This document shows, in pieces, positions 73 to 58,542 of a stretch of 64,000 nt of DNA. Below the pieces are notes generated by a model. That model did not search any database. It was not told where the DNA came from and was given only the letters and a program-made list of their open reading frames with translations. The translations under genes were made by a program, and so were the position numbers. Position 1 is the stretch's first letter. Each line of letters starts with the position of its first letter. Source of the DNA: a bacterium (GTDB lineage Bacteria > Patescibacteriota > Patescibacteriia > Magasanikbacterales > GWA2-37-8); contig JBDROJ010000027.1 of NCBI GenBank assembly GCA_043810165.1, positions 36,974-100,973 of the forward strand, in the 5' to 3' direction.

Positions 73-582
73 TCACTCCTTTTCCTCGTCGTCGTTGTTG
101 TTGAAGTCAGTGCCTCTTGGACGAATGCCGGAATGTTCATTTCCAGACACCTGTTTGTGTTCCTTGGAAGGCGGATCTCCGGCCTTGATCGGCTCCATGT
201 CCTGGGTTGTGGGCAAAGGCATGGAATGCCTGGGTAGGTTGCTGTCACCACGGAACACGAAGTTTGCAGACAGTCTGACCAGCCTCATCTCCTCCAGCAG
301 ATAGAGTCCGTCCGGACCGTCCCACACATGCTCGTGCAGATCTGATGTCATGATCTCTTGGTTGATGATCTCGTACTCCTCCTGGCTAATGGAGATACTG
401 TGTCCGGTTCTGACATCATCTCGGATAGCAACCAGGAACAGGCCGGCCGTGAGCGCATAGGCCATCTCCTTGGATCCTACCTTGAAGATATACTCGCCAA
501 CGATCACGAAGGCCTCATACCTATTTTTGTTTTGTAAGAACACCCTTGGCTGGATCGATCCGTCCTCTTTCTTCTCATCCAT
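73..582 (-). CDS. hypothetical protein encoded in the GC-rich 5' islet (169 aa)
   Basis: Long ORF with an upstream AAAGGAAAAGGA SD-like stretch. Local GC is ~50% versus ~34% for the rest of the window. No recognisable catalytic motif. Confidence 0.4.
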   Translation of the reverse strand: MDEKKEDGSIQPRVFLQNKNRYEAFVIVGEYIFKVGSKEMAYALTAGLFLVAIRDDVRTGHSISISQEEYEIINQEIMTSDLHEHVWDGPDGLYLLEEMRLVRLSANFVFRGDSNLPRHSMPLPTTQDMEPIKAGDPPSKEHKQVSGNEHSGIRPRGTDFNNNDDEEKE

Positions 583-865: not shown

Positions 866-1240
866 CTAGAGCTGCACTTCTGACTCTGCTCGGTGCTGGT
901 CCATGTAGAAGGACTCCTGCACGAGTTTGTCCGGCTGGATAACCGGAGTGGTCTGGACGGCTCGGGCTTGTGATGCCTTCCTCGGCTCTCTGGCCGTGAT
1001 GATCACGCCCGGGTCGGCGGGAAGACGTCCCGCAGACCAGCATGTCTTGAGATCTGGGAAAATGATCAGGGCATATCTGACCAGGCGATTGGCATCGTCC
1101 TGGTCAAACCTGCCCATAATTGCCTTGTTCTGGGCTTCCATTACCTCGGAGCTTGTACGTACAGCCCCGAAGGCGAAGAAGTCCCTGACACTGTCGGTTC
1201 CTTGCTCTTTCAGAGCAAACTTCAACATACCCTTTGCCAT
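866..1240 (-). CDS. hypothetical protein (124 aa from the internal Met MAKGMLKF...), GC-rich islet
   Basis: The track ORF 866..1321 was trimmed to the Met preceded by an AAAGGAGAG SD. The stop is followed by an extended imperfect hairpin at 728-790. No recognisable family. Confidence 0.4.
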   Translation of the reverse strand: MAKGMLKFALKEQGTDSVRDFFAFGAVRTSSEVMEAQNKAIMGRFDQDDANRLVRYALIIFPDLKTCWSAGRLPADPGVIITAREPRKASQARAVQTTPVIQPDKLVQESFYMDQHRAESEVQL

Positions 1241-1363
1241 TTTCAGGCTCTCCTTTCCTGTGATACAGCTAGTTGAGGTTGGAATTGAAAACAGTATACA
1301 CAAAAAACAGCATACTGTCAATATGCTGTTGTGCGAGAGTGTTATTTTTTTTTTACAAGTTCT

Positions 1364-4410: not shown

Positions 4411-5616
4411 ATGCTTCCAAAACCAAAAGAAAAACAAGAAATATACCTGGATCATGCGGCCACCACATATATGTTGCCAGAAGTAGTAAAAGCCATGGAG
4501 CCTTTTTATATTGAAAAATATGGCAATGCCTCATCTCTATATAGCAAAGGCAGGCAGGCCAATAATATATTATTGGATTGTCGCAAAACAATTGCTGGCT
4601 TAATTCATGCTCAGCCTTTGGATATTATTTTTACCGGAGGAGGCACTGAATCTGACAATTTAGCCATTTATGGAATAGCCAAAGCGCATGAACAGAAAGG
4701 AAAGCATATAATCTCCATGGCCATTGAACACCATGCAGTTTTGCATCCATTGGAAGATTTGGAAAAACAGGGCTGGGAAATAACCTATATTAAAACCAAC
4801 AAACATGGCTTGATAGATCCAAAAGAAGTGGCCAAGGCAATTAGAAAAGATACGATTTTGATAACCATTATGTATGCTAATAATGAAATTGGTACCATCG
4901 AACCAATCGCAGATATTGGCCGGCAAGTATTAAAATATCGCAAAGCAAATAATACCAATTACCCATATTTTCATACTGACGCCTGCCAAGCAGGTGGTTA
5001 TTTGGATGTGGATGTGGAAAAATTACACGTTGATTTAATGACCATAAATGGAAGTAAAATGTATGGTCCAAAGGGCGTTGGCATGCTTTACGTGCGCCGT
5101 GGAGTTAAAATTAAGCCAATTATTTTAGGTGGATCTCAAGAAAGAAAATTGCGAGCCGGCACTGAAAATGTGCCTGGGATCGCGGGTTTTTGCAAAGCAT
5201 TTGAACTGGCACAGAAAAACAAAGATGGAGAAACAAAAAGAATAGGGGAATTGCGCAATTATCTTTGGGATCAAATCAAAAAAAGTATTTCTGATGTTAC
5301 GCTCAATGGTCCGGAATTAATTGACGACCTGCGTTTATCAAATAATCTAAACGTCAGCTTTAAAAATATTGAAGGTGAAGCAATGTTATTATATTTGGAC
5401 GAGTACGGCATAATGTGTTCAACCGGATCGGCTTGCACGTCTGATTCATTAGATCCTTCACATGTTTTAACAGCAATTGGTTTACCGGTAGAATTAGCTC
5501 ATGGAAGCCTACGATTTAGCTTCGGACACTGTAATACTAAAAATCAGGTTGATTATATTATGGAACACTTGCCAATGATAGTAAAAAAATTAAGAGAAAT
5601 TTCCGCAATTCAGTAA
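4411..5616 (+). CDS. iscS: cysteine desulfurase (IscS/NifS, PLP-dependent class V aminotransferase)
   Basis: Conserved PLP-lysine region TINGSKMYGPKGVGMLYVRRG and active-site loop CSTGSACTS. Length 401 aa. Confidence 0.9.
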   Translation: MLPKPKEKQEIYLDHAATTYMLPEVVKAMEPFYIEKYGNASSLYSKGRQANNILLDCRKTIAGLIHAQPLDIIFTGGGTESDNLAIYGIAKAHEQKGKHIISMAIEHHAVLHPLEDLEKQGWEITYIKTNKHGLIDPKEVAKAIRKDTILITIMYANNEIGTIEPIADIGRQVLKYRKANNTNYPYFHTDACQAGGYLDVDVEKLHVDLMTINGSKMYGPKGVGMLYVRRGVKIKPIILGGSQERKLRAGTENVPGIAGFCKAFELAQKNKDGETKRIGELRNYLWDQIKKSISDVTLNGPELIDDLRLSNNLNVSFKNIEGEAMLLYLDEYGIMCSTGSACTSDSLDPSHVLTAIGLPVELAHGSLRFSFGHCNTKNQVDYIMEHLPMIVKKLREISAIQ

Positions 5617-33506: not shown

Positions 33507-34958
33507 ATGGACATCAAACAAAGCGAAGAACAAGATAGGCTAAAAAAACTGGAGTATCTATACAAACAAGGTATTAATCCATACCCAGCTCAAAGTAATA
33601 AAAAACAAAGCTGTGAACAAGCAAAAGCATCAAAAGAAGGTGCCCAAGTATGTGTGGCCGGCCGCATAATGTCTAAACGAATAATGGGAAAGTTGTCTTT
33701 CTGTCATCTCCAAGATCAAAGCGGGCGCGTACAAGTAGCAATTAGCGACAAAGAACTTGGAAAAGATGACTATAAATTATTTATCAAATTTTTTGACATG
33801 GGCGATTTTGTAGAACTTACGGGTAACATGTTTATTACTCACAAAGGGGAAAACACAGTTCTGGTAAAAAAATACCGGTTATTGTCAAAAGCTCTGCGTC
33901 CTTTGCCTGAGAAATTTCATGGGCTACAAGATCAAGAAGAGCAATTTAGAAAAAGATATCTGGATATTTTATTAGATCCAGAATTAAAGGAATTATTTTT
34001 CAAAAAAACTCGCTTTTGGAATAGTATGCGGGAATTTTTGGTTAAACAAGGATTTTTAGAAGTGGAGACTCCTATTTTAGAAACCACAGCCGGCGGGGCT
34101 GACGCAAATCCTTTTGTGACCCATCACGATGCGCTAGATATGGATGTTTACTTGCGTATTTCAATGGGCGAACTATGGCAAAAACGATTAATGGTGGCCG
34201 GGCTGGAAAAAACCTTTGAAATTGGCAGGCAATTCCGCAATGAAGGCCTAAGCCGCGAACACCTACAAGATTACACCCAAATGGAATTTTATTGGGCTTA
34301 TGCCGACTACACCAAAGGCATGAAATTGGTGGAAGATATGTATAAGTATGTTATTAAACAAAGTTTTGGCAGTTTAAAATTTGATATTGATAAATACAAA
34401 GACATTGATCTAGAACAAAAATGGGGAAAAATATCTTATGCTGAAGAAATAAAAAAGCAAACAGGAATTAATATATTAAAAGCCAACGACCAAGAAATGT
34501 TAGATAAAATTAAAGAATTGCATATTGAAGCAAAAAATTTAAGTTCTCGCGGACGCATTATGGATACTTTATGGAAATACTGCCGCAAAAATATCAAAGG
34601 ACCTGTATTTTTAATGGATCATCCGGTTGATGTATCTCCATTGGCTAAAAGAAAGCAAGATGATCCAAAACTTACTGAACGATACCAGATTATAATTGCC
34701 GGTAGCGAACTTGGCAACGGATATTCAGAGTTAAATGATCCTGTGGATCAGGCTCAAAGATTCAATGAACAAGCCAAGATGCGTGAACAAGGAGATAGCG
34801 AAGCACAGATGCATGATAGTGATTTTGTGGAAGCTCTTGAGCATGGCATGCCACCTACAACTGGATTCGGATTGTCTGAAAGGCTGTTTTCATTTTTAGC
34901 CAATCGTCCAATACGTGAATGTGTATTGTTCCCTTTAATGAAACCAGATGAAAAATAA
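33507..34958 (+). CDS. lysS: lysyl-tRNA synthetase, class II
   Basis: Class II motifs 1, 2 and 3: FLEVETPIL, the FRNEG region and AGSELGNGYSELNDP. Confidence 0.9.
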   Translation: MDIKQSEEQDRLKKLEYLYKQGINPYPAQSNKKQSCEQAKASKEGAQVCVAGRIMSKRIMGKLSFCHLQDQSGRVQVAISDKELGKDDYKLFIKFFDMGDFVELTGNMFITHKGENTVLVKKYRLLSKALRPLPEKFHGLQDQEEQFRKRYLDILLDPELKELFFKKTRFWNSMREFLVKQGFLEVETPILETTAGGADANPFVTHHDALDMDVYLRISMGELWQKRLMVAGLEKTFEIGRQFRNEGLSREHLQDYTQMEFYWAYADYTKGMKLVEDMYKYVIKQSFGSLKFDIDKYKDIDLEQKWGKISYAEEIKKQTGINILKANDQEMLDKIKELHIEAKNLSSRGRIMDTLWKYCRKNIKGPVFLMDHPVDVSPLAKRKQDDPKLTERYQIIIAGSELGNGYSELNDPVDQAQRFNEQAKMREQGDSEAQMHDSDFVEALEHGMPPTTGFGLSERLFSFLANRPIRECVLFPLMKPDEK

Positions 34959-34994: not shown

Positions 34995-35228
34995 ATGGAA
35001 GTAAGCTGTGAAATCCTGAAGTGGGATGAACTGAACACTCAGGATAAGGAACTAATTGCGCAGGCGCTGGAGGTAAGAAAAAAAGCCTATGCCAAATACT
35101 CCTCGTTCATGGTGGGTTGTGTGATTATAGACACAACCGGAACCTCTCATATCGGTCGCAACGTGGAACGAGCATCCTACTCTGAAACCACACTTTGGCA
35201 TCAGTCACTAACAAAACCGGGAGACTGA
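34995..35228 (+). pseudogene. cdd: truncated cytidine deaminase (cdd) remnant in a GC-rich islet
   Basis: ELIAQALEVRKKAYAKYSSFMVGCVIIDTTGTSHIGRNVERASYS matches the Cdd N-terminal half. The zinc-ligand CAER motif region is replaced by divergent sequence, and the ORF stops at 77 aa where ~130 is expected. Local GC is ~48%. Confidence 0.5.
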
Positions 35229-35279
35229 TGTCTCCCGCCTTTTGCCCATAAACTATTATGGGTTAAAGACAGGAAATTT

Positions 35280-35669
35280 ATGAAAAAAGTAATAGTATTT
35301 GGCACATTTGATTTGATTCATCCCGGACATTTGCATATGTTCAAGCAGGCTAAAGAATATGGTGATTTTTTAGTGATAGTAATTTCTCGCGATAAGATAA
35401 CCTGCCAGATAAAAGGCAAACTGCCTATAAATAATGAAGAGGTGCGATTAGCCAATATCAAAAAATTAAATGTGGCTGACAGAGTAAGATTGGGATGTCT
35501 AGATGATCATTATCGTGTAATAAAAGAAGAAAAACCTGATATTGTAGCACTAGGATATGATCAGAAAGCTTTTGTTGATAGCCTGTCAGAAATTATAGAA
35601 GATCATTGCCAAATAGTAAGACTAAGTCCATACAAGCCTGAAATTTATAAAAGCTCAAAATTAAAATGA
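35280..35669 (+). CDS. cytidylyltransferase-family nucleotidyltransferase (TagD/RibL-like)
   Basis: MKKVIVFGTFDLIHPGHLHMFKQAKEYGDFLVIVIS is closely similar to the glycerol-3-phosphate cytidylyltransferase N-terminus, including the HxGH motif. Length 129 aa. Confidence 0.7.
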   Translation: MKKVIVFGTFDLIHPGHLHMFKQAKEYGDFLVIVISRDKITCQIKGKLPINNEEVRLANIKKLNVADRVRLGCLDDHYRVIKEEKPDIVALGYDQKAFVDSLSEIIEDHCQIVRLSPYKPEIYKSSKLK

Positions 35670-36685
35670 AAAAAATATTAATTGCGACAAGCAACCAAGG
35701 TAAATTTAAAGAAATCACCAGCGAGATGTCTGATATGCCTTTTGATTTTATATCATTGCAAGACTTGCCAAAAAAAATCAAAGAGCCTGTTGAGGATCAA
35801 CCTACAATTGAAGAAAACGCGATCTTGAAAGCTAAATATTATGCTAAAAAAACAGGCTTACCAAGCCTGGCTGATGATTGCGGTTTATTTATAGATGCTT
35901 TAAATGGCTGGCCAGGGGTTATTAGCGCGCGTATTGGCACCAATGATGATGAAAGACGAGCCAATGTTTTATCTAAGATGAATGGCAAAACCAACCGAAA
36001 AGCAAAATTTAAAGCAGTTTTGGCTTTATTTGATCCAAATGACCAAAATATGTATTTATCTTATGGAGAATGTCAAGGTCAATTGCTTGAAAAAGAAAAT
36101 CTACAAGGAAAAAACGGATTTGGCTATGATCCAATATTCTATGTGACTGAAAAAGGCAAGACATATTCAGAAATGCCTATAGTTGAAAAAAATCTTATCA
36201 GCCATCGAGGCAGGGCCCTGGCTAATATAAAATTCTACCTGATTAAACAATACTCTTTTAAACAATATATAGTGCCTTTAGGAATACTTGTTAAAGATAG
36301 AAAAATGCTAATGACCAAACGACGCGACCATCGCCTGGAATATAATAATAAATGGGAGTTTCCTGGCGGGGGAGTGGACAATGGCGAATCCATAAAAGAT
36401 AATTTATTAAGAGAAGTCCGAGAGGAAACCGGTTACAGTGTTGATGTGGTTGAACAACTGCCGGAAATTTTAACTGAAACTAGGAAAAAATATGACTACC
36501 AAGTATTTTTATTACCATACATTTGTAAAATAAAATCAGGCAAACTCAAGACTTCAGACAATGAAACTTACGGTCATGGATGGTTTACAATGGCAGAAGC
36601 TTTAAAAAAATCGCTTCTACCGTTGAACAAAAAATGTATTCAAGATAAAAACAACTGGGCAATGCTTAAAAAATATATTGATTAA
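35666..36685 (+). CDS. fusion protein: RdgB/HAM1 non-canonical purine NTP pyrophosphatase (N-terminal) + NUDIX hydrolase (C-terminal)
   Basis: N-terminus KILIATSNQGKFKEI...FGYDPIF...SHRGRAL is Ham1/RdgB. The C-terminus carries the Nudix box GGGVDNGESIKDNLLREVREETGY. Confidence 0.75.
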   Translation: MKKILIATSNQGKFKEITSEMSDMPFDFISLQDLPKKIKEPVEDQPTIEENAILKAKYYAKKTGLPSLADDCGLFIDALNGWPGVISARIGTNDDERRANVLSKMNGKTNRKAKFKAVLALFDPNDQNMYLSYGECQGQLLEKENLQGKNGFGYDPIFYVTEKGKTYSEMPIVEKNLISHRGRALANIKFYLIKQYSFKQYIVPLGILVKDRKMLMTKRRDHRLEYNNKWEFPGGGVDNGESIKDNLLREVREETGYSVDVVEQLPEILTETRKKYDYQVFLLPYICKIKSGKLKTSDNETYGHGWFTMAEALKKSLLPLNKKCIQDKNNWAMLKKYID

Positions 36686-36696
36686 CAAACACACAT

Positions 36697-37950
36697 ATGT
36701 TAGATATAAAATATATATTAGAGAATAAAGAATTAATCCAAGAAAACTGTAAAAATCGCGGTACTCGTGCTAATCTGGAAGAATTAATGGCTTTGGATGA
36801 AGAAAGAAAAGGGCTGTTAAAAAAAATAGAAGATCTGCGCAGTAAACGCAATCAAATTTCAAAAGAAAAACCCAGGGATGAAGATATTCTATTAATGCGA
36901 AAACTTGGACAAGAAGTTAAGCAATTAGAAAATATTTTAATCAATATTGAAGATAAATTAAAAGATGTTCTGTATCAGATACCAAACATCACGCATCCTG
37001 ATAGTCCAATTGGAGATGAGGATCAATTCAAAGTTTTATACACAAACAAAGAACCATCTAAATTTGATTTTGAACCTAAAAATCACGAGGAATTGATGCT
37101 GGATTTAGATCTAATTGATTTTGAACGCGGTGCAAAAGTTGCCGGTTCTAAATTTTATTTTTATAAGAATCAAGCAGTGCGCCTTAATCAAGCTTTAATC
37201 AATTATGGATTGGATATTACTGCCAAATACGGCTATCAGATGATGGAAACGCCTGACCTGGTTAAATCAGAAATCTTGACCGGCAGTGGTTTCAATCCAC
37301 GTGGCGAAGAAAAACAAACCTATGAAATTAAAAACACTGACTTAGACCTGGTTGGCACAGCTGAAATAACAATGCTTGGTTATCATGCAGACGAAATTTT
37401 GGACTTGAGCCAAGGACCTAAAAAATACGTGGCTTTGTCACATTGTTTTCGTGTTGAAGCCGGATCCTACGGCAGAACCAGCAAAGGACTATATCGCGTC
37501 CATCAATTCACTAAGCTGGAAATGTTCATTTTCTGCAAACCAGAAGAAAGTGAACAATATCATCAAGAATTACTCAACATAGAAAAAGAAATTGTAGACG
37601 GCTTGGAACTGCCTTATGAGGTAATTGATATAGCTACTGGCGATTTGGGAGCACCGGCTTATCGTAAATTTGATATTGAAGCTTGGATGACCATGAAAGG
37701 CGATGATAAAAAACAAGGCGGATACGGAGAAATCACCAGCACCAGCAATTGTACTGACTATCAAGCTCGCCGTTTAAATATTAGATATCAAGGCAAGCAA
37801 GAGAAAAAATTTGTACATACATTAAATGGCACAGCCGTTGTTTTAAGCCGTTTTCCAATAGCTTTGTTAGAAAATCATCAACAGGCTGATGGCAGTATAT
37901 CCATTCCTGAAGTTTTAAGAAAATATTGCGGATTTGATGAAATAAAATAA
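36697..37950 (+). CDS. serS: seryl-tRNA synthetase
   Basis: N-terminal coiled-coil arm. Class II motifs 2 and 3: FRVEAGSYGRTSKGLYRVHQF and the GTAV region. Confidence 0.9.
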   Translation: MLDIKYILENKELIQENCKNRGTRANLEELMALDEERKGLLKKIEDLRSKRNQISKEKPRDEDILLMRKLGQEVKQLENILINIEDKLKDVLYQIPNITHPDSPIGDEDQFKVLYTNKEPSKFDFEPKNHEELMLDLDLIDFERGAKVAGSKFYFYKNQAVRLNQALINYGLDITAKYGYQMMETPDLVKSEILTGSGFNPRGEEKQTYEIKNTDLDLVGTAEITMLGYHADEILDLSQGPKKYVALSHCFRVEAGSYGRTSKGLYRVHQFTKLEMFIFCKPEESEQYHQELLNIEKEIVDGLELPYEVIDIATGDLGAPAYRKFDIEAWMTMKGDDKKQGGYGEITSTSNCTDYQARRLNIRYQGKQEKKFVHTLNGTAVVLSRFPIALLENHQQADGSISIPEVLRKYCGFDEIK

Positions 37951-37957
37951 TATTCTT

Positions 37958-39067
37958 ATGCAAACCTGGATTGAGGTAAATAAAAAGGCCATAGAATATA
38001 ATTTAAAACAGATTCGCCAGAAAATCGGTCGCGATGTTTTATTGATGCCTGTTATAAAAGCTAACGCATATGGACATGGTTTCTTAGAAACCGCCAAAAT
38101 TTGCAATCAAAACAAAGAAGTAGACAGAATCTGTGTTGCCAATTCTGATGAGGCCTTAAGATTGATTGAATTAACAAAAAAACCAATTCAAATACTTAGT
38201 TTTTATGATCTGGACAAGAAAATTTTGCTAAAACTAGCTAAAAACGCAATGATTTTTCCGGTTTATGACCAAAGACAAGCTAAAATTCTAGACAAGGTAG
38301 GGGACAATGTCAGAAAAAAAATTAAAATACACCTCAAAATAGATACTGGCACTTCTCGGCTAGGTATTCTACCAAATAACCTAGTAAACTTTACTAATGA
38401 CATCAAGAACTTTAAAAATCTAAACATCGAGGGGGTATTTAGCCATTTTTCTTCTAGCGAAGAAGACAGGGAAGTAACAATTCAACAATTAGAAATTTTT
38501 AACAAAGCAACAAATTTATTAAGTCAACAAGGAATAAATCCTGCTATAAGACACATAACGTGTTCTGCGGCCACGATATTATATCCAGAATCTCATTTTG
38601 ATGCAGTCAGGATAGGAATAAGTTTGTATGGCTTGCACCCGTCCGACCAAGCAAATATAGCCATTAAATTAAAACCAGTATTATCTTGGCATACCAAAAT
38701 AATACAAGTCAAAAAGGTGCCAAGTCAAACTAAAATTAGTTATGACTGTACTTATACCACCAATAGGCCGACAAAATTAGCAATTTTGCCCATTGGTTAT
38801 TGGGATGGTTTTGATAGAGGATTGTCAAACAAGGGTCTAGTATTGATAAAGGGCATCAAGTGCCCTATTTTAGGCCGTGTATGCATGAATTTAAGCATTG
38901 TGGATATAACTAATATTCCAGAAGTTAATGCAGGGGAACAGGCCACCTTGATAGGTACTCAAGGCCACCAAACCATTACTGCCCAAGACATGGCCAAATG
39001 GGCTGGTACTATTAATTACGAAATTATAGATAGAATAAACCCATTACTGCCGAGAATCATAAAATAA
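37958..39067 (+). CDS. alr: alanine racemase
   Basis: PLP-lysine motif VIKANAYGHG and C-terminal beta domain. Confidence 0.85.
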   Translation: MQTWIEVNKKAIEYNLKQIRQKIGRDVLLMPVIKANAYGHGFLETAKICNQNKEVDRICVANSDEALRLIELTKKPIQILSFYDLDKKILLKLAKNAMIFPVYDQRQAKILDKVGDNVRKKIKIHLKIDTGTSRLGILPNNLVNFTNDIKNFKNLNIEGVFSHFSSSEEDREVTIQQLEIFNKATNLLSQQGINPAIRHITCSAATILYPESHFDAVRIGISLYGLHPSDQANIAIKLKPVLSWHTKIIQVKKVPSQTKISYDCTYTTNRPTKLAILPIGYWDGFDRGLSNKGLVLIKGIKCPILGRVCMNLSIVDITNIPEVNAGEQATLIGTQGHQTITAQDMAKWAGTINYEIIDRINPLLPRIIK

Positions 39068-39068
39068 T

Positions 39069-40097
39069 ATGATAAAACGCTTTCACTCCCAACAAGCGCA
39101 TACAAAGTACCGCCCCTACCAATCTCGCTGGAGGCGTTTTTTGAATTATCGTAAAAAAATTAAAAAACAAAAATATACAATCAAAAAACAAGAGAAGTTA
39201 AGTCAGCAAAATCCGTATAAAGCCAGAAGAATGGAAAAAAGAAAGCTTCCTTTGACAAAAATTAAAATACTTTTACTATTACTATTTATAATTGCATGGA
39301 TTATTTTGTTGCTATATTTACCATTCTTCCAAATTAACCAGATAACTTATAATGGGCTGGAAAATATAAAAGAGGCTGAAATACAAGATACTATAAATAA
39401 TAAATTCCTAAAAGATAGTAATAAAATACCTTACAAAAACTTTTTTATAATAAAACCGACAAAAATATCCGAAGAGCTTGAAAAAAACTTCCCCATTCAA
39501 AGTATTGAAATCAAAAAAATATTTCCTAATAAACTAGAGATAAACATAAAAGAAAAATACACTTCTTTAATATATGATAATGGATCTGATTATTTTTTGA
39601 TGGACAATACAGGCAAGCTAATAAAATACCTAGCCAAAATAGGTGATAATGAATTTTTGACCAAGATTATTACAAGCACCAGCACTTCTAGCACATATCC
39701 AGGAGAAATTATAACCACTACTACTAGCACTACTAAGCTACATCGACCAAACTATATACAAATTCAACAACAATTTGGCAAATATCCAATTCTGTATGAT
39801 ATCAGAAATAAGCAAGTAAGTGTAGGCGATCCGAATTTATTGCCAGACAATTTTATATCAGCCATTATTGAAATCAATAACAAGCTCTCCGGGCTTGGAA
39901 TAGGGGATATTAATTATTACGTACTGGAAAATGTCAATTCTGGTGTAGAAATTAAAACTTCTAATATTTGGAGTATCTTTATGCAACCAACTCAGAATAT
40001 TGATACCCAGCTAAATAATTTAAAAATTATATTAGCTGAGAATCAACCCGCTCTGTACATAGATTTACGGCAACAGAGCAGGGTATACTGGAAATAA
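39069..40097 (+). CDS. FtsQ/DivIB-like cell division protein (basic N-terminal tail, TM, POTRA)
   Basis: Lys/Arg-rich cytoplasmic tail, one TM, then a POTRA-like segment FQINQITYNGLENIKEAEIQDTI. Confidence 0.45.
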   Translation: MIKRFHSQQAHTKYRPYQSRWRRFLNYRKKIKKQKYTIKKQEKLSQQNPYKARRMEKRKLPLTKIKILLLLLFIIAWIILLLYLPFFQINQITYNGLENIKEAEIQDTINNKFLKDSNKIPYKNFFIIKPTKISEELEKNFPIQSIEIKKIFPNKLEINIKEKYTSLIYDNGSDYFLMDNTGKLIKYLAKIGDNEFLTKIITSTSTSSTYPGEIITTTTSTTKLHRPNYIQIQQQFGKYPILYDIRNKQVSVGDPNLLPDNFISAIIEINNKLSGLGIGDINYYVLENVNSGVEIKTSNIWSIFMQPTQNIDTQLNNLKIILAENQPALYIDLRQQSRVYWK

Positions 40098-40098
40098 T

Positions 40099-40127
40099 TT
40101 GACATATTTTTTGTTTATTTGTATAAT
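40099..40127 (+). promoter_or_regulatory. sigma70-like promoter upstream of the xer gene
   Basis: TTGACA, a 17-nt spacer, then TATAAT. Followed by direct repeats CGTCGTATAATA / CGTCGTAATAAG. Confidence 0.5.
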
Positions 40128-40179
40128 ATATTCAACGTCGTATAATATAGATTAACCGTCGTAATAAGCTTATAATTGT

Positions 40180-41166
40180 ATGGAGAAATCAAATATACCA
40201 TTAATTAACCATATTCCTGACTTTCTGGAATATTGCGAGGTGGAAAAAGGGTTGTCGCCTATAACCACCCGTAATTATCATAATTTTTTAAAAACATTTG
40301 TTTCATGGTTAAAAATTTCCAAAAAAAAGGATACTAGACCCCACCAAATTACAGAAAAAGACATATGGAATTACAGGCTGTTTTTATCTAGAAAAAAGGA
40401 TGCTACTGGTCAGATATATATAAAAAAAACCACACAGAACTATTATTTGATTGCTCTTAGAAATCTTTTTAATTATCTTGCCATACGAAATATCAGCGCT
40501 ATTAATTCTGAAAAAATAAATTTACCAAAATTAACCGAAAAAGATAAAAAAATAAAATTTTTAAAATTTGAACAAATTGAAAAATTATTATCAATGCCCG
40601 ACATTGAAAAACATGATGGATTGCGAGATAGAGCTATTTTGGAAGTACTATACTCCACTGGTATGAGAGTATCAGAACTAACGTCGCTTAATATAGAACA
40701 GTTTGACACCCAAAATATTATCAAAGAGAAAACCAAAGATATGGAATTAAGCATTGCTGGCAAGGGTGGCTCAGTACGGGCAGTATATTTTTCCTCTCGT
40801 GCATTAAAATGGTTGGGAAGATACATGAATACTCGCAAAGACATGCTCTCTCCCCTATTTACAAATTACAAACAATCTTCTAATCCTGATGACGAACACC
40901 GTTTAAGCCCGCGTTCGGTTGAACGTATAGTGCGTAAATATACCATTATGGCCGGCCTACCAGTAAGTGCTACTCCACATACTCTAAGACATAGCTTTGC
41001 TACCGACTTGTTAGAGCAAGGCGCTGATTTACGCTCTGTGCAAGAACTTTTGGGACATAAAAATATTGTGACTACTCAAATTTATACCCATGTGACTAAT
41101 AAACAACTTCGTTCGGTACATAACAAATTTCATAGTGGAGGAAATAAAAAAACATTAAAAAAATGA
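40180..41166 (+). CDS. tyrosine site-specific recombinase XerC/XerD-like
   Basis: C-terminal catalytic region HTLRHSFATDLLEQGADLRSVQELLGHKNIVTTQIYTHV with the R..H..R..Y residues. Confidence 0.85.
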   Translation: MEKSNIPLINHIPDFLEYCEVEKGLSPITTRNYHNFLKTFVSWLKISKKKDTRPHQITEKDIWNYRLFLSRKKDATGQIYIKKTTQNYYLIALRNLFNYLAIRNISAINSEKINLPKLTEKDKKIKFLKFEQIEKLLSMPDIEKHDGLRDRAILEVLYSTGMRVSELTSLNIEQFDTQNIIKEKTKDMELSIAGKGGSVRAVYFSSRALKWLGRYMNTRKDMLSPLFTNYKQSSNPDDEHRLSPRSVERIVRKYTIMAGLPVSATPHTLRHSFATDLLEQGADLRSVQELLGHKNIVTTQIYTHVTNKQLRSVHNKFHSGGNKKTLKK

Positions 41167-41201
41167 TTTTAAATCTCTAAATAGTACTAAAATATTTATT
41201 T

Positions 41202-49470: not shown

Positions 49471-51807
49471 TTATATTTTTTCTTTTTGCAGATCATCTAT
49501 TATATCCTTGGATTCTTCCGGGGTTAGCTTCCAACCAGGCGGGCTATCTTGATCTAGAATCTGCCTAAGTAATCTTCCTCCGTTTTTTTGATCAAGTGGC
49601 TTGGGCGCTAATCCATAACCGCTTAGCATTTTTTTTACTTCATCGCCTGTTCTCTGCCTTCTTTTTTTGACAGTTCCTTTCTTTTTAATTTTACCAGAGT
49701 GCGCAACTACTTCAGGCGCAAATACGAGTTTTGATTTTTGATCTGGCCTAACATCAGTCTTTGTTTTTGCCTTTAAATCAACCATATCCTTGCCCGCTGT
49801 TTTTGCCTTGGATAATATTTTTTTATATACCTCTTTTTTTCTAGCTTGTTCAGCCTTAAAATCAATTCTCTTAATAGCTTTAGCCTTTTCCTCTTCTGGC
49901 TGTTCCACATCATTTTGAAAAGCTTCATAAGCAAGCCCGCCTGCGACTGCGCCAATACCGGCAACTGCGATTGCTTTTTTCCAATGTTTTTTTGCAAAAT
50001 TTGGTTCTTCATTATACCTTCTAACTCTTGGTTCAGCAACTTGAGTAAATAATTCCGCACCTCTTACCGGATCATACATTCCTTCAGGTTTTATTTTAGC
50101 TTTACCAGCTGTGAGAGACTTAATTGCATCCAAAGTCACACGCATTAAAGCCATACCTCCCACGAACTGACCTTTTTTAATGGTTTTCAGCCATGCTATA
50201 TCAACATTTTTACCGTATAACAATTTATCAAAGAAACCAACTTTTGTCTTATATGACCGCTCCAATACTCCATTAAACAACGCTAACGTCATATCTCTGG
50301 CTATTTTGTCAGCTTCTCTCTCCAAATCCGCATGCACATCCGTGGAAAAATTTTCATAGACTTGTTCTAGAGTGGGCTTTATGATATTTACAGCCAATAT
50401 TCTTTGTATTTCTGATTTATCTTTTCTGATCAAGGCGCTTTTAATTTCTTCCCATCTTATTGTAAATCTGGCTTTTAAATTTTCTTCCAAAGTAGCAAAT
50501 TCTTGGGCATCAATCATAGCAGGGTCCAGGTTTTCTATTGACTCATTATCAACAAACGGCGATTCGGCCGGTTTTTCAAAATCATCCTCTGTTTCTTTTT
50601 CTTGTACAATTTCATGGCCCTGTTTTTTTATAAACTCATTCAAAGGAACCCTAATCATTTTTCCCTGACTTTTTATTTCTTCCCATTCTTCGTCAGTAGC
50701 TAAGACAGCCTCTTTTTCGTTAGATACAAATGGTGATTCGGCCGGTTTTTCATAAACAGTCTTAGAATCTAAATAATTCTCCCTGGTCATTTTCACTTGT
50801 TTTTCAAAATTTTTAGCTACCTGGACTGGTAAATTTTCTATATCTTCTTCATAATGAGAAATTATCTCTCCTATGGTGGAAATATACATTTCTTCTCCGC
50901 CTTGCTCAATATCTTCAGGTTCAACATCTTGCAACATCTTTGCATATTGTGATATTTCAGATTTCAAAGATTGTGCTTCTTTAGTAATTAACAAACTTGT
51001 GGGCAATTCTTTGATTTTTTTCAGCAAGATTGTAAGCCTGTCTCTCAATCGCTTAAGACCAAATTTCAAATTGGGTGGTTCTCCTTCTCCGCCACCACCG
51101 CCTGCTTTGGCTGAATTCTCTTCAACTTGAGTGGATTGCGAAAACGAACCGGGCTGGCTATTATCACCGGATACATTGTCCACGGACGCGGTTCCAACCA
51201 CGGTTTCTGACTTGTGAAGGCTCTCAAGAATTTGAGTGAATTTTTTAATCTCTTCCAAACTATAATTTTTGGCCTTTTTTACCAATTTCCACATCTTTTC
51301 GGCAGTTGCTTGATCCTTTATTTTTCCTATCATTTGAGCTGCTAAAACATATTCAACTGCCCTTTCAGTTTTTTCTAAATCATGGTGGCTCAAATGTTCC
51401 GGATCTACGGAAGCAAAAACTTTGGCGTATTTATCCCTTAAATCAGAATTCTGTATTTGCTCGGCCCTTTGTTCAATTTCTGTCAACTTATTTTCTATAA
51501 ATTCACGTTCTTGCTTTTTCAATTGCGCTACCCGATCTTTTAATCTGGCCAAATCTTGATTGACCGTATCATCTTCAAAGCCACCTTCTCTAATCATCAT
51601 GTCAGTAATATTTAAATCTGATTCAAGATCTTGATAATCTGATTTTTTTTGTATTTTAATATCAGCCAAATCTTTTCTTAAAGATTCAACCAATTTCAAA
51701 CGAGATTCTTTTAACTTTGGAGTAAACTGAAGAACTTCGGCGCCTTGTCTTTGTGTTTCTCTATTGTCTTCGCCAAACGAATGAGTATTTTTAGCAAAGT
51801 CAATCAT
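49471..51807 (-). CDS. large coiled-coil hypothetical protein (778 aa) with an internal direct repeat
   Basis: Long charged helical protein. Repeated peptide (Y/F)EKPAESPFV(S/D)NE is encoded by a ~30-nt direct DNA repeat at ~50553 and ~50725. Glycine-rich patch AGGGGGEGEPP and one hydrophobic segment near the C-terminus. Confidence 0.5.
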   Translation of the reverse strand: MIDFAKNTHSFGEDNRETQRQGAEVLQFTPKLKESRLKLVESLRKDLADIKIQKKSDYQDLESDLNITDMMIREGGFEDDTVNQDLARLKDRVAQLKKQEREFIENKLTEIEQRAEQIQNSDLRDKYAKVFASVDPEHLSHHDLEKTERAVEYVLAAQMIGKIKDQATAEKMWKLVKKAKNYSLEEIKKFTQILESLHKSETVVGTASVDNVSGDNSQPGSFSQSTQVEENSAKAGGGGGEGEPPNLKFGLKRLRDRLTILLKKIKELPTSLLITKEAQSLKSEISQYAKMLQDVEPEDIEQGGEEMYISTIGEIISHYEEDIENLPVQVAKNFEKQVKMTRENYLDSKTVYEKPAESPFVSNEKEAVLATDEEWEEIKSQGKMIRVPLNEFIKKQGHEIVQEKETEDDFEKPAESPFVDNESIENLDPAMIDAQEFATLEENLKARFTIRWEEIKSALIRKDKSEIQRILAVNIIKPTLEQVYENFSTDVHADLEREADKIARDMTLALFNGVLERSYKTKVGFFDKLLYGKNVDIAWLKTIKKGQFVGGMALMRVTLDAIKSLTAGKAKIKPEGMYDPVRGAELFTQVAEPRVRRYNEEPNFAKKHWKKAIAVAGIGAVAGGLAYEAFQNDVEQPEEEKAKAIKRIDFKAEQARKKEVYKKILSKAKTAGKDMVDLKAKTKTDVRPDQKSKLVFAPEVVAHSGKIKKKGTVKKRRQRTGDEVKKMLSGYGLAPKPLDQKNGGRLLRQILDQDSPPGWKLTPEESKDIIDDLQKEKI

Positions 51808-55354: not shown

Positions 55355-55749
55355 GGGGGTGTCGGGCTTCGACAGGAATATTTGTTATCACCGGCATATT
55401 GAGCTGGCTCCATGCTCATAAATCTCTGGGGCGCAAACACAAATGCAAATTTGTACACAAAAGCAAAAACAGCTGTTGCACAAATGTTCAATAGCTACAA
55501 CTTTGCTCCGGCAATGGCTTAATTGCCTATGCCCATCGCGCTGGCCATACCTAGTAACCAGTTGCGGTGCCACTTACCAGGCGTAGGTTAAAAATCGTTC
55601 TGATAGATTTTTAACTGAAAGCAAATATTAGATAGCTATTTAAGTTTTGGTTCTCTTCCTACTTAATTAGCAAATTAAACAAGAGAACTAAATATGTAGA
55701 AGGTATTAACAAAATTATCTGCACGCGGGTTCAACTCCCGCCACCTCCA
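55355..55749 (+). ncRNA. ssrA: tmRNA (ssrA)
   Basis: The 5' end GGGGGUGUCGGGCUUCGACAGG matches the tmRNA 5' consensus (GGGGCUGAUUCUGGAUUCGACGGG). The 3' end GCGGGUUCAACUCCCGCC-ACCUCCA-C forms the T-arm and acceptor stem. The 7-bp acceptor pairing (5' GGGGGUG with 3' CACCUCC) includes one G-U pair, as in E. coli. An internal reading frame ends ...NFAPAMA-UAA. Located immediately downstream of smpB. Confidence 0.75.
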
Positions 55750-55768
55750 CTAAAGGTATAAACATTAT

Positions 55769-57063: not shown

Positions 57064-58542
57064 TTATTCGTATTTACTATAATTAGGCGCCGAATCAACT
57101 TGTTGCAGGTCATGGGGATGGTTTTCTTTAAGACTGGCCGAAGTGGTTCTAACAAACACGGCTTTATCTTGCAGTTCTTGAATAGTTTTAGCACCACAAT
57201 AACCCATTCCACTGCGTAAACCGCCAGCTAATTGATATAATATTCGTTCTACCGGGCCTTTGTATAAAACCTTGCCACTGACACCTTCAGGAACAAATTT
57301 CTTTTTTTCTTGAATATGTCCTTGGCCATAACGATCTTTACTCCCCTGCTCCATGGCTTCAATACTGCCCATACCACGATAAACCTTAAACATCTTACCG
57401 CCTACATATTCTACCCTGCCTGGTGTCTCGTCTGTTCCAGCTAGCATATTACCCACCATAATGGCTTGAGCACCAATGGCCAGAGCTTTTACCACATCAC
57501 CTGAACTTTTGATACCACCATCAGCAATCACTGATATTTTTTTGCCTGGCATTGATTTAACCGCATCCACCACTTCTTTTAAAGCAGATAATTGTGGCAC
57601 GCCAACACCTGAAATAACTCTTGTGGTACAAATTGATCCTGGGCCGATACCTACTTTCACTGCATCAGCTCCGGCTTCCACCAAATCCCTGGCCGCTTCG
57701 GCCGTGGCAATATTACCGGCAATAATGGGCAAGCCAATATAATTTTGTTTAATTTGTCTAAGAGTATCAATTACCCCGGATGAATGTCCATGGGCAGTAT
57801 CAATTACTATCACATCCACTCCTGCCTTGACCAAAGCCTGCACCCGATCCACGGCCGGCTGGCCAACGCTTACAGCTGCACCAACGCGCAACTGTTTGGA
57901 TCCGTTTTTGCAAGCATAAGGATATATTTCATTTTTTTCCAAATCACGCCTGGTTACCAAATTAGTTAACTTGCCCTGTCCATCAACCACGCATAAAGTT
58001 TTTACTCTTTTTTCATGAATCATTTTATTGGCATCATCCAGACTAATCCCCTGCCTGGCCACAACCATTTCTGACAATGGAAGCATGCGATCCTTTACCA
58101 GTAAACTATCATCTTGAGGATGAAAATAATCAATATCTCTAATAATTCCAACCAATACGCCTTGATTATCAACAACCGGCACTTTTTTAAAACCAAATCT
58201 ATTTTTAATCTCTGCCACTTTGCTGATTTGGTCATCCGGAAGAATAGTGATCGGATCTTCTATAAAACCATTTTCAAAACGCTTGACCAGGCTTACTTCA
58301 TCGGCCTGTTCTTGCACGCTTAGATTTTTATGGATAATGCCGATACCGCCAGTTAAGGCCATGGCAATGGCCATCTTGTGTTCAGTGACTGTATCCATGG
58401 ACGCGCTTAAAAATGGCGTGTTTAATTTTATGTCAGCAGTCAAATAAGTTTTTAATTCTGCATCTTTTGGCAAAATAAAAGACTTCTGCGGGACAAGCAA
58501 AACATCGTCAAAAGTTAGGGTTTGTTGGAAATTTTGAAACAT
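57064..58542 (-). CDS. guaB: IMP dehydrogenase (with CBS pair)
   Basis: Catalytic loop GIGPGSICTTR and NAD/IMP motifs (GGIKSSGDVVKALAIGA). CBS domains are inserted. Confidence 0.9.
   Translation of the reverse strand: MFQNFQQTLTFDDVLLVPQKSFILPKDAELKTYLTADIKLNTPFLSASMDTVTEHKMAIAMALTGGIGIIHKNLSVQEQADEVSLVKRFENGFIEDPITILPDDQISKVAEIKNRFGFKKVPVVDNQGVLVGIIRDIDYFHPQDDSLLVKDRMLPLSEMVVARQGISLDDANKMIHEKRVKTLCVVDGQGKLTNLVTRRDLEKNEIYPYACKNGSKQLRVGAAVSVGQPAVDRVQALVKAGVDVIVIDTAHGHSSGVIDTLRQIKQNYIGLPIIAGNIATAEAARDLVEAGADAVKVGIGPGSICTTRVISGVGVPQLSALKEVVDAVKSMPGKKISVIADGGIKSSGDVVKALAIGAQAIMVGNMLAGTDETPGRVEYVGGKMFKVYRGMGSIEAMEQGSKDRYGQGHIQEKKKFVPEGVSGKVLYKGPVERILYQLAGGLRSGMGYCGAKTIQELQDKAVFVRTTSASLKENHPHDLQQVDSAPNYSKYE

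Follow-up and report, generated by a model that had tools for sequence, protein, structure and literature searches.

The 64,000-nucleotide stretch of DNA analysed here (the window), part of contig JBDROJ010000027.1 of a bacterium of the order Magasanikbacterales (Patescibacteriota), carries a gene whose 339-amino-acid (aa) product joins an RdgB/HAM1 nucleotide pyrophosphatase domain to a Nudix hydrolase domain (Table 1). This RdgB-Nudix fusion is real, an artefact being effectively excluded, and it is the normal state in Magasanikbacteria-type members of the Candidate Phyla Radiation (CPR), though uncommon globally. Judged from family profiles, conserved residues and a predicted structure, the protein is probably a bifunctional house-cleaning nucleotide pyrophosphatase composed of two catalytically independent modules, which would have been fused once in this lineage.

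Two enzyme domains in one reading frame

Direct reading of the open reading frame (ORF) revealed that it crosses the domain junction uninterrupted, with neither a stop codon nor a frameshift near position 36250. Both expected Pfam families were recovered above their cut-offs, Ham1p_like (PF01725) on residues 4-189 (E 5.2e-56, 189.9 bits against 22.5) and NUDIX (PF00293) on residues 206-326 (E 1.3e-17, 64.5 bits against 21.1). The initial annotation, made from the sequence alone, had proposed a single polypeptide fusing RdgB/Ham1 and Nudix and had pointed to the region around 36250 as the place where an overlooked stop or frameshift might lie; the fusion stood on both counts. The motifs it had quoted are present exactly, namely KILIATSNQGKFKEI at residues 3-17, FGYDPIF at 152-158, SHRGRAL at 179-185 and GGGVDNGESIKDNLLREVREETGY at 234-257, the last of which contains a complete Nudix box. 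GC content is uniform over the two halves (35% in RdgB and 34% in Nudix), which are also equally conserved, with mean pairwise identities of 48% and 47% among the 120 homologues used for all residue counts below.

An AlphaFold2 (AF2) model of the fusion, built from a 40-sequence alignment, reached a predicted local distance difference test score (pLDDT) of 92.6 and a predicted template-modelling (TM) score (pTM) of 0.69. According to DSSP, the last RdgB helix of this model spans residues 180-196 and the first Nudix strand residues 199-210, in good accordance with the boundary at about 195 to 200 that had been read from the sequence, and the mean pLDDT of the block 191-200 was 83. No second Nudix or RdgB copy was found in the window by tblastn, and none of the Foldseek matches was a solved structure covering both domains.

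The RdgB half

The N-terminal half passed the NCBIfam RdgB/HAM1 equivalog model TIGR00042 (168.9 bits against 145.35), and sequence comparison with the PDB retrieved Coxiella HAM1 (3tqu, E 2e-34) and E. coli RdgB (1k7k, E 2e-32). Alignment to E. coli RdgB (1k7k/2pyu) and 3tqu paired T8, N10, K13, E43, K55, D70/D71, F152-F158 and S179-G182 with enzyme residues, the E. coli counterparts being T8, N10, K13, E41, K53, D68/D69, FGYDPIF and SHRG. Overall, the catalytic and substrate set was kept in 109-120 of the 120 homologues, with position 70 occupied by D or E, and T8, N10, K13, E43, K55, D71, F158, K175, S179 and R181 were kept in 119-120 of them. At the position equivalent to D71, the aligned sequence of the E. 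coli RdgB-ITP (inosine triphosphate) complex 2q16 carries a visible D-to-A change. Foldseek comparison of the N-terminal domain of the AF2 model with 3tqu and 2q16 gave E values of ~1e-19, TM(target) of 0.90-0.91 and root-mean-square deviations of 1.7-1.8 Å. The membership of residues 1-196 in the RdgB family is thereby established at the level of sequence and predicted fold, and hydrolysis of ITP and xanthosine triphosphate (XTP) would be expected from that membership. Compared with the solved RdgB/HAM1/ITPA enzymes (1k7k/2q16 and 3tqu), the fold and all catalytic and substrate residues are shared, at 37-40% identity over the structural superposition; unlike the known RdgB proteins, which are single-domain proteins of ~200 aa, the C-terminal helix of this half enters the Nudix domain after 2 residues.

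The Nudix half

The Nudix box is complete (G235-x5-E241-x7-R249-E250-V251-R-E253-E254-T-G256-Y257) and strongly conserved, with E241 kept in 117 homologues, E250, E253 and E254 in 119-120 and R249 in 110. A profile of the domain matched several PDB entries about equally well, namely a putative CTP pyrophosphohydrolase (3gwy, 6.6e-15), Bartonella MutT (3hhj, 8.2e-15), the MutT 5x1x and BdRppH (3ees). In the AF2 model, residues 199-339 adopt the alpha/beta/alpha Nudix fold, and the best Foldseek matches of this domain were M. smegmatis MutT2 in complex with 5-methyl-dCTP, dCTP or CMP, followed by BdRppH and E. coli ORF135/NudG (2rrk), with TM(target) of 0.79-0.88 overall and 0.85-0.88 for MutT2 5zro and BdRppH 3ees. 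Profile and model alike place the Nudix half in the MutT/NudG/MutT2/BdRppH clade. A signature of the coenzyme A type (LLTxR[SA]x3Rx3Gx3FPGG) was also considered and rejected by direct reading, since the lead-in LMTKRRDHRLEYNNKWEFPGG does not fit it.

Comparison with E. coli MutT by hhalign (probability 98.2%; the query sequence was checked to be identical to 1mut) paired R219 with R23, E241 with E44, R249 with R52, E250 with E53, E253/E254 with E56/E57, E300 with E98 and N321 with N119. These positions were kept in 110-120 of the homologues (R219 in 120 and N321 in 111). In MutT, N119 and R23 are the base-recognition residues of the MutT-8-oxo-dGMP structures 3a6s/3a6t, where N119 recognises 8-oxoguanine, and the conservation of their equivalents therefore favours a MutT-like purine substrate. 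This pair is not diagnostic of MutT, because BdRppH has the same Asn. The fusion shares with E. coli MutT and the minimal MutT-like clade (3hhj, 5x1x) the ~140-aa Nudix fold, an 'RR...WEFPGG' lead-in, the complete box and the equivalents of R23, E44, R52, E53, E56, E57, E98 and N119; it is unlike E. coli MutT in being fused to another enzyme and in having only ~20% identity to it. The pyrimidine nucleoside triphosphate (NTP) Nudix enzymes MutT2 (5zrc-5zrp), NudG/ORF135 (2rrk) and the Bacteroides CTP pyrophosphohydrolase 3gwy provided the best structural (MutT2, TM 0.86) and profile (3gwy) matches; unlike the fusion, 3gwy carries GGK and, where the fusion has N321, a D, as does NudG.

Distribution of the fusion

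Relatives of the fusion were sought among 5.8 billion proteins and in a scan of GTDB with one genome per species. Genomes of 208 GTDB species turned out to encode a relative, and 80 loci from these genomes were kept for the counts of synteny and ORF continuity. An identical (100%) entry exists at NCBI as 'MAG: RdgB/HAM1 family non-canonical purine NTP pyrophosphatase [bacterium]', from a 120.6-kb contig of a metagenome-assembled genome (MAG). The best 120 database matches were all proteins of ~340 aa carrying PF01725 and PF00293 at 45-62% identity, and the RdgB-Nudix architecture was common to the 164 homologues retrieved. A single continuous ORF of 318-375 aa was present in 77 of the 80 loci, the exceptions being two at contig ends and one with a deletion (L079, described below).

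The titles of the 80 loci read Magasanikbacteria or Magasanikiibacteriota in 38 cases, Patescibacteria, Parcubacteria or Paceibacter in 8, 'uncultured Gammaproteobacteria' in 32, Candidatus Udaeobacter in 1 and 'bacterium' in 1. The 32 gammaproteobacterial titles, which come from bulk third-party assemblies, were read as placeholders, because one gene order is common to 73-78 of the 80 loci. The named loci are thus mostly Magasanikbacteria; Magasanikiibacteriota is a candidate phylum in the Parcubacteria group of the Patescibacteria. The initial annotation had left the phylogenetic distribution as a point to check and had described the architecture as not common, which holds on a global scale but not within Magasanikbacteria-type CPR. 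Literature searches found no paper describing an RdgB/HAM1-Nudix fusion, and public records name the protein after its RdgB half alone ('RdgB/HAM1 family' or 'XTP/dITP diphosphohydrolase'), so the second catalytic domain is invisible in annotation.

Modular variants at the same genomic slot

The fusion gene lies between a gene for a 129-aa RibL-like nucleotidyltransferase and serS, and this slot revealed several alternative domain combinations. When the Nudix domain alone was compared with 1.84 billion representatives, 6 matches at <=1e-30 and 230 at <=1e-10 were obtained, and the closest were RdgB-Nudix proteins of ~340 aa or fragments thereof. Seven of the closest representatives (E <= 1e-17) were 274-285-aa proteins in which a Nudix domain of the same clade directly follows a RibL-like domain (P0124 and P0127, for example). 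Altogether, 20 such RibL-like-Nudix proteins of ~270-285 aa without RdgB were retrieved, including P0124, P0127 and P0270-P0280, and in two genomes they fill the slot between lysS and serS (L081 6001-6840 and L082 6001-6840). The RdgB module is missing cleanly from these proteins, which retain the linker motif [SA]F[KR]Q[FY][IV]VP; assembly GCA_030650025.1 carries the RibL-like-Nudix form. In a neighbour-joining tree of Nudix domains they fell at >=5 separate places among the RdgB-Nudix proteins, which suggests repeated in-frame loss of RdgB; built on a 140-aa domain, this tree is indicative, and it was used solely for the occurrence of that loss more than once.

Two further variants complete the picture. 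In a more distant CPR genome (L088), the slot holds the RibL-like gene, an RdgB alone (207 aa, 36% identical, 4474-5097) and serS, with no Nudix. This RdgB has degenerate FGYDPIF and SHRG motifs (FPFREILF and NQRVEAL) and may be inactive or functionally diverged. At L079 (6001-6861), an in-frame deletion takes out the catalytic REx2EE of the Nudix box and leaves the RdgB half intact. Taken together, RdgB alone, RibL-like-Nudix and RdgB with a broken Nudix indicate that the halves behave as separable modules, and this natural separability argues against obligatory coupling or channelling. The proposal that the fusion couples the sanitation of deaminated and oxidised nucleotides was consequently not upheld.

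Gene neighbourhood and the RibL-like gene

The gene string around the fusion is mreC - mreD-like - pbp2 - greA - lysS - (cytidine deaminase, cdd, remnant) - 129-aa gene - RdgB-Nudix - serS - alr - ftsQ-like - xerD-like, and greA, lysS, the 129-aa RibL-like gene and serS were present in 73, 77, 78 and 76 of the 80 related loci, respectively. The TGA of the RibL-like gene overlaps the ATG of the fusion (ATGA, 35666-35669), and the same 4-bp overlap was observed in 24 loci; the two genes appear translationally coupled.

Table 1. Position in the window of the RdgB-Nudix fusion, its parts, its neighbours and other features
Feature	Position	Strand	Evidence or remark
RdgB-Nudix fusion ORF	35666..36685	+	339 aa, ATG start, TAA stop, stop codon included
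RdgB/HAM1 domain, predicted (d)ITP/XTP diphosphatase, residues 1-196	35666..36253	+	PF01725, TIGR00042, PDB 3tqu/1k7k, Foldseek
Two-residue linker S197-F198, last RdgB helix to first Nudix strand	36254..36259	+	DSSP on AF2 model
Minimal MutT-clade Nudix hydrolase domain, residues 199-339	36260..36682	+	PF00293, profile against PDB, Foldseek, hhalign
Nudix box G235..Y257 (GX5EX7REUXEEXGU)	36368..36436	+	Direct sequence reading
N321 codon, aligned with E. coli MutT N119	36626..36628	+	hhalign; 111 of 120 homologues have N, 7 have D
RibL-like (archaeal-type FAD synthase-like) nucleotidyltransferase, 129 aa	35280..35669	+	PF01467, PDB 3glv; upstream of fusion
lysS, conserved upstream neighbour	33507..34958	+	77/80 related loci; Pfam context
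serS	36697..37950	+	11 bp past the fusion's stop; 76/80 related loci, mostly 1-10 bp downstream
Cytidine deaminase remnant, 77 aa	34995..35279	+	TIGR01354, N-terminal half only
Terminator-like hairpin	35218..35237		After cytidine deaminase remnant
xerD-like recombinase gene	40180..41166		Gene orientation changes past it
IMP dehydrogenase with CBS domains	57064..58542	-	Uses RdgB product IMP
UvrD-helicase/PD-(D/E)XK nuclease fusion, 973 aa	24805..27726	+	AddA-like
778-aa ORF	49471..51807	-	No Pfam family at E <= 1e-5
tmRNA	55355..55752	+	Rfam, 134 bits
ORF near start of window	73..582	-	No Pfam match
ORF near start of window	866..1321	-	No Pfam match

The 129-aa gene encodes an HxGH enzyme of the cytidylyltransferase-like kind (PF01467, E 2e-15), and the best solved relative of this protein, ahead of TagD, was 3glv (E 1.3e-24, full length). 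JGI and NCBI label its standalone homologues FAD (flavin adenine dinucleotide) synthetase or FAD synthase, and one archaeal homologue belongs to a riboflavin operon, where it lies between the genes for 3,4-dihydroxy-2-butanone 4-phosphate synthase and two 6,7-dimethyl-8-ribityllumazine synthases. On this basis the protein was termed RibL-like. In two archaeal examples from unrelated lineages, one of them in a riboflavin operon, no Nudix or Ham1 gene was found next to the RibL-like gene; the archaeal neighbours therefore support the FAD-synthase identity and give no independent support for a link between RibL and Nudix. Parcubacteria were reported to lack ribK, ribL and ribF and yet to possess the FAD-dependent MurB and TrxB (Nelson & Stegen 2015, PMC4508563), and the RibL-like gene is a candidate for the FAD synthase reported missing.

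Between lysS and the RibL-like gene lies what looks like a foreign or decayed insertion, a cytidine deaminase remnant that matched TIGR01354 with 48.5 bits against a cut-off of 113.65. It is richer in GC than the adjoining genes (45% against 33-37%), and none of the 80 related loci has it. A hairpin resembling a terminator, CGGGAGAC-TGAT-GTCTCCCG, was also observed there.

Proposed function and alternative explanations

According to the explanation considered probable here, a Nudix domain would have been appended in a single event to an RdgB gene located between the RibL-like gene and serS. Residues 1-196 would act as an orthodox RdgB/HAM1 enzyme, converting deaminated purine triphosphates ((d)ITP, XTP) to monophosphate and pyrophosphate, and the products, inosine monophosphate (IMP) and xanthosine monophosphate, could re-enter metabolism. 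The window also encodes an IMP dehydrogenase, and purine interconversion is therefore retained. Residues 199-339, with their own intact metal-binding box, would most likely hydrolyse a second class of aberrant (d)NTP, for which 8-oxo-guanine nucleotides are a first guess and modified or pyrimidine NTPs, as for NudG and MutT2, the alternative. From the evidence above we infer both these substrates and the reason for the fusion, whose benefit is probably obligatory co-expression together with economy of coding space, in an organism that has a streamlined genome and scavenges its nucleotides; channelling of substrates is unlikely. The dependence of the host on scavenged nucleotides, which the initial annotation had assumed, agrees with its placement, as it is a CPR bacterium of a kind without nucleotide biosynthesis, the state described for Parcubacteria (PMC4508563).

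Several observations weigh against this explanation, mainly with respect to the Nudix half, which passed no NCBIfam equivalog cut-off of the MutT, NudG or RppH type. The MutT models were not reached (TIGR00586, 45.2 against 97.9 bits; PRK10776, 39.9 against 148), nor was the NudG-type NF007834 (38.4 against 156 bits), despite MutT2, NudG and 3gwy being the top neighbours, nor the RppH models (NCBIfam PRK00714 models, TIGR02705; 39.7 against 118 and 29.8 against 154.4). Moreover, G236 aligns with Lys39 of MutT, which follows the GG of the Nudix box and has a role in MutT enzymology. The six residues most common at this position among the 120 homologues were G (68), S (22), I (7), K (7), A (4) and T (4), so that it is G, S or I in 97, whereas all four of the closest solved relatives with shown alignments have GGK. 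Since the closest structures include enzymes acting on dCTP or 5-methyl-dCTP, on CTP and on RNA 5' ends, a specificity for 8-oxo-guanine is not established. The earlier description of this half as a MutT-like hydrolase of oxidised nucleotides is thus a plausible guess, favoured by the equivalents of R23, E98 and N119 and weakened by the failed MutT cut-off, by the replacement of Lys39 by G or S and by MutT2, NudG and BdRppH as best structures. The two-residue linker and a pTM of only 0.69 leave room for a fixed inter-domain geometry that could be functionally relevant. Finally, the adjacency of the RibL-like gene and the recurrent RibL-like-Nudix fusion could tie the Nudix domain to the RibL-like enzyme.

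This last point can be extended to a distinct, unlikely explanation, in which the Nudix domain would work for the upstream RibL-like enzyme, in the way known from NadM-Nudix, by cleaving a dinucleotide or cofactor at its pyrophosphate (for example ADP-ribose, FAD or a deamino-dinucleotide made in error), and RdgB would be the third member of a cassette for cofactor quality control. In its favour, the RibL-like gene adjoins the fusion in 78 of the 80 loci, with the 4-bp overlap in 24, its adjacency to RdgB is kept in the more distant genome L088, and 20 proteins join the same Nudix clade directly to a RibL-like domain. In eukaryotes, FAD synthases with a fused FAD pyrophosphatase domain are also known (PMC9678776). 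The Nudix profile matches NadM-Nudix (nicotinamide mononucleotide adenylyltransferase/ADP-ribose pyrophosphatase, 2qjt), a precedent for the combination of an HxGH nucleotidyltransferase and a Nudix domain seen in P0124 and P0127; however, the protein in the window is an RdgB-Nudix, the transferase is RibL/TagD-like and not NadM, and the match is weak (E 3.7e-7). Nudix enzymes of ADP-ribose, NADH or FAD usually have an extra N-terminal domain, which is lacking in the ~140-aa Nudix fold of the fusion, a minimal MutT-type domain that resembles NTP enzymes most closely in both sequence and structure. Furthermore, the RibL-like-Nudix proteins fill the slot left by the removal of RdgB, and in-frame deletion explains them without a functional link; the synteny comes entirely from one lineage and may be inherited rather than selected; and the archaeal RibL homologue has riboflavin genes as neighbours, not Nudix or Ham1. 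It also seems improbable that the RibL-like nucleotidyltransferase, RdgB and Nudix form a coupled cassette for cofactor quality control. If they did, RdgB would keep ITP and XTP from the adenylyltransferase making FAD or another cofactor, and Nudix would hydrolyse aberrant dinucleotides or surplus cofactor, which would explain the repeated retention of Nudix as a transferase fusion after RdgB loss and would point to the FAD synthase reported missing from Parcubacteria (PMC4508563).

A role of the Nudix half as an RppH/BdRppH-like RNA 5'-pyrophosphohydrolase that triggers mRNA decay, fused to RdgB for expression only, is quite unlikely. BdRppH (3ees/3eeu/3ffu) was among the best matches (E 3e-14, TM 0.86-0.88) and shares with the RdgB-Nudix family the N at the MutT N119 position, and weak NCBIfam RppH and YtkD matches were obtained; however, the RppH scores lay far under their cut-offs and were restricted to the Nudix box region, structures of MutT and of CTP pyrophosphohydrolase matched equally well, and BdRppH and the other close relatives have GGK, whereas the RdgB-Nudix family has GGG or GGS. 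It is very unlikely that the Nudix half extends the RdgB pathway by hydrolysing (d)IDP and (d)XDP, as human NUDT16 does, so that deaminated purine di- and triphosphates would be cleared together. The Pfam Nudt16-like match that would suggest it, which recurs in homologues, is below the gathering score (E 7.5e-4, 19.9 against 27 bits) and overlaps the generic Nudix core, and although N321 might suit a 6-oxopurine, the survival of the Nudix domain after RdgB loss speaks against a strict dependence on RdgB. As for an assembly chimera, a frameshift, a mis-called gene or an anti-phage system (HAM1-like KomB, PDC-S07), the origin of the window in a metagenome-assembled genome, the match of the Nudix half to the PADLOC candidate single-gene model PDC-S07 (E 6.5e-20, the sole defence-model match) and the weak matches of KomB structures to the RdgB half make such readings conceivable but extremely improbable, given the continuous ORF in 77 of 80 loci, the 164 proteins retrieved and the uniform GC content of the halves. 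PDC-S07 did not match more strongly than the generic Pfam NUDIX family did, and the RdgB half matched RdgB at E 2e-34 against E 7e-9 for KomB. A defence system was rejected on the basis of its neighbours as well, which are the housekeeping genes lysS, serS, greA, alr, mreC and pbp2 in conserved order.

Significance

The bifunctional house-cleaning enzyme proposed here requires no new mechanism, since each half resembles an ordinary member of a well-studied superfamily, and the fusion is a variant, specific to one lineage, of enzymes already known. Precedents for an additional domain in either family are implied by two longer models, as the Nudix half of the window protein matches positions 8-125 of the 315-position Nudix family hydrolase PRK08999 and its RdgB half positions 129-315 of the 328-position nucleoside-triphosphate diphosphatase PRK02491 (both NCBIfam); unlike the fusion, neither of them combines RdgB with Nudix. 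In CPR/Patescibacteria, which do not make nucleotides and need scavenged pools, the sanitation of those pools should matter. Consequently, a conserved protein that hard-wires two sanitising activities would offer a cheap, testable handle on which damaged nucleotides are relevant in these uncultured bacteria, and the locus can be regarded as a natural experiment in domain modularity, with RdgB alone, RdgB-Nudix, RibL-like-Nudix and a decayed Nudix at one syntenic slot.

Other features of the window

Downstream of the fusion, the maximum of the cumulative GC skew lies at ~38-39 kb, genes turn from the plus to the minus strand past the xerD-like recombinase gene, and the region at ~38000-41200 may be a replication terminus. 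Positions 1-1000 of the window have a GC content of 48.6%, against a window mean of 36%, and contain the two minus-strand ORFs without a Pfam match listed in Table 1. The sole structured RNA found in the window was a transfer-messenger RNA (tmRNA), whose predicted tag peptide is long (ANLYTKAKTAVAQMFNSYNFAPAMA). In addition, the window carries a large ORF of 778 aa without a Pfam family and a second multidomain protein, an AddA-like fusion of UvrD helicase and PD-(D/E)XK nuclease.

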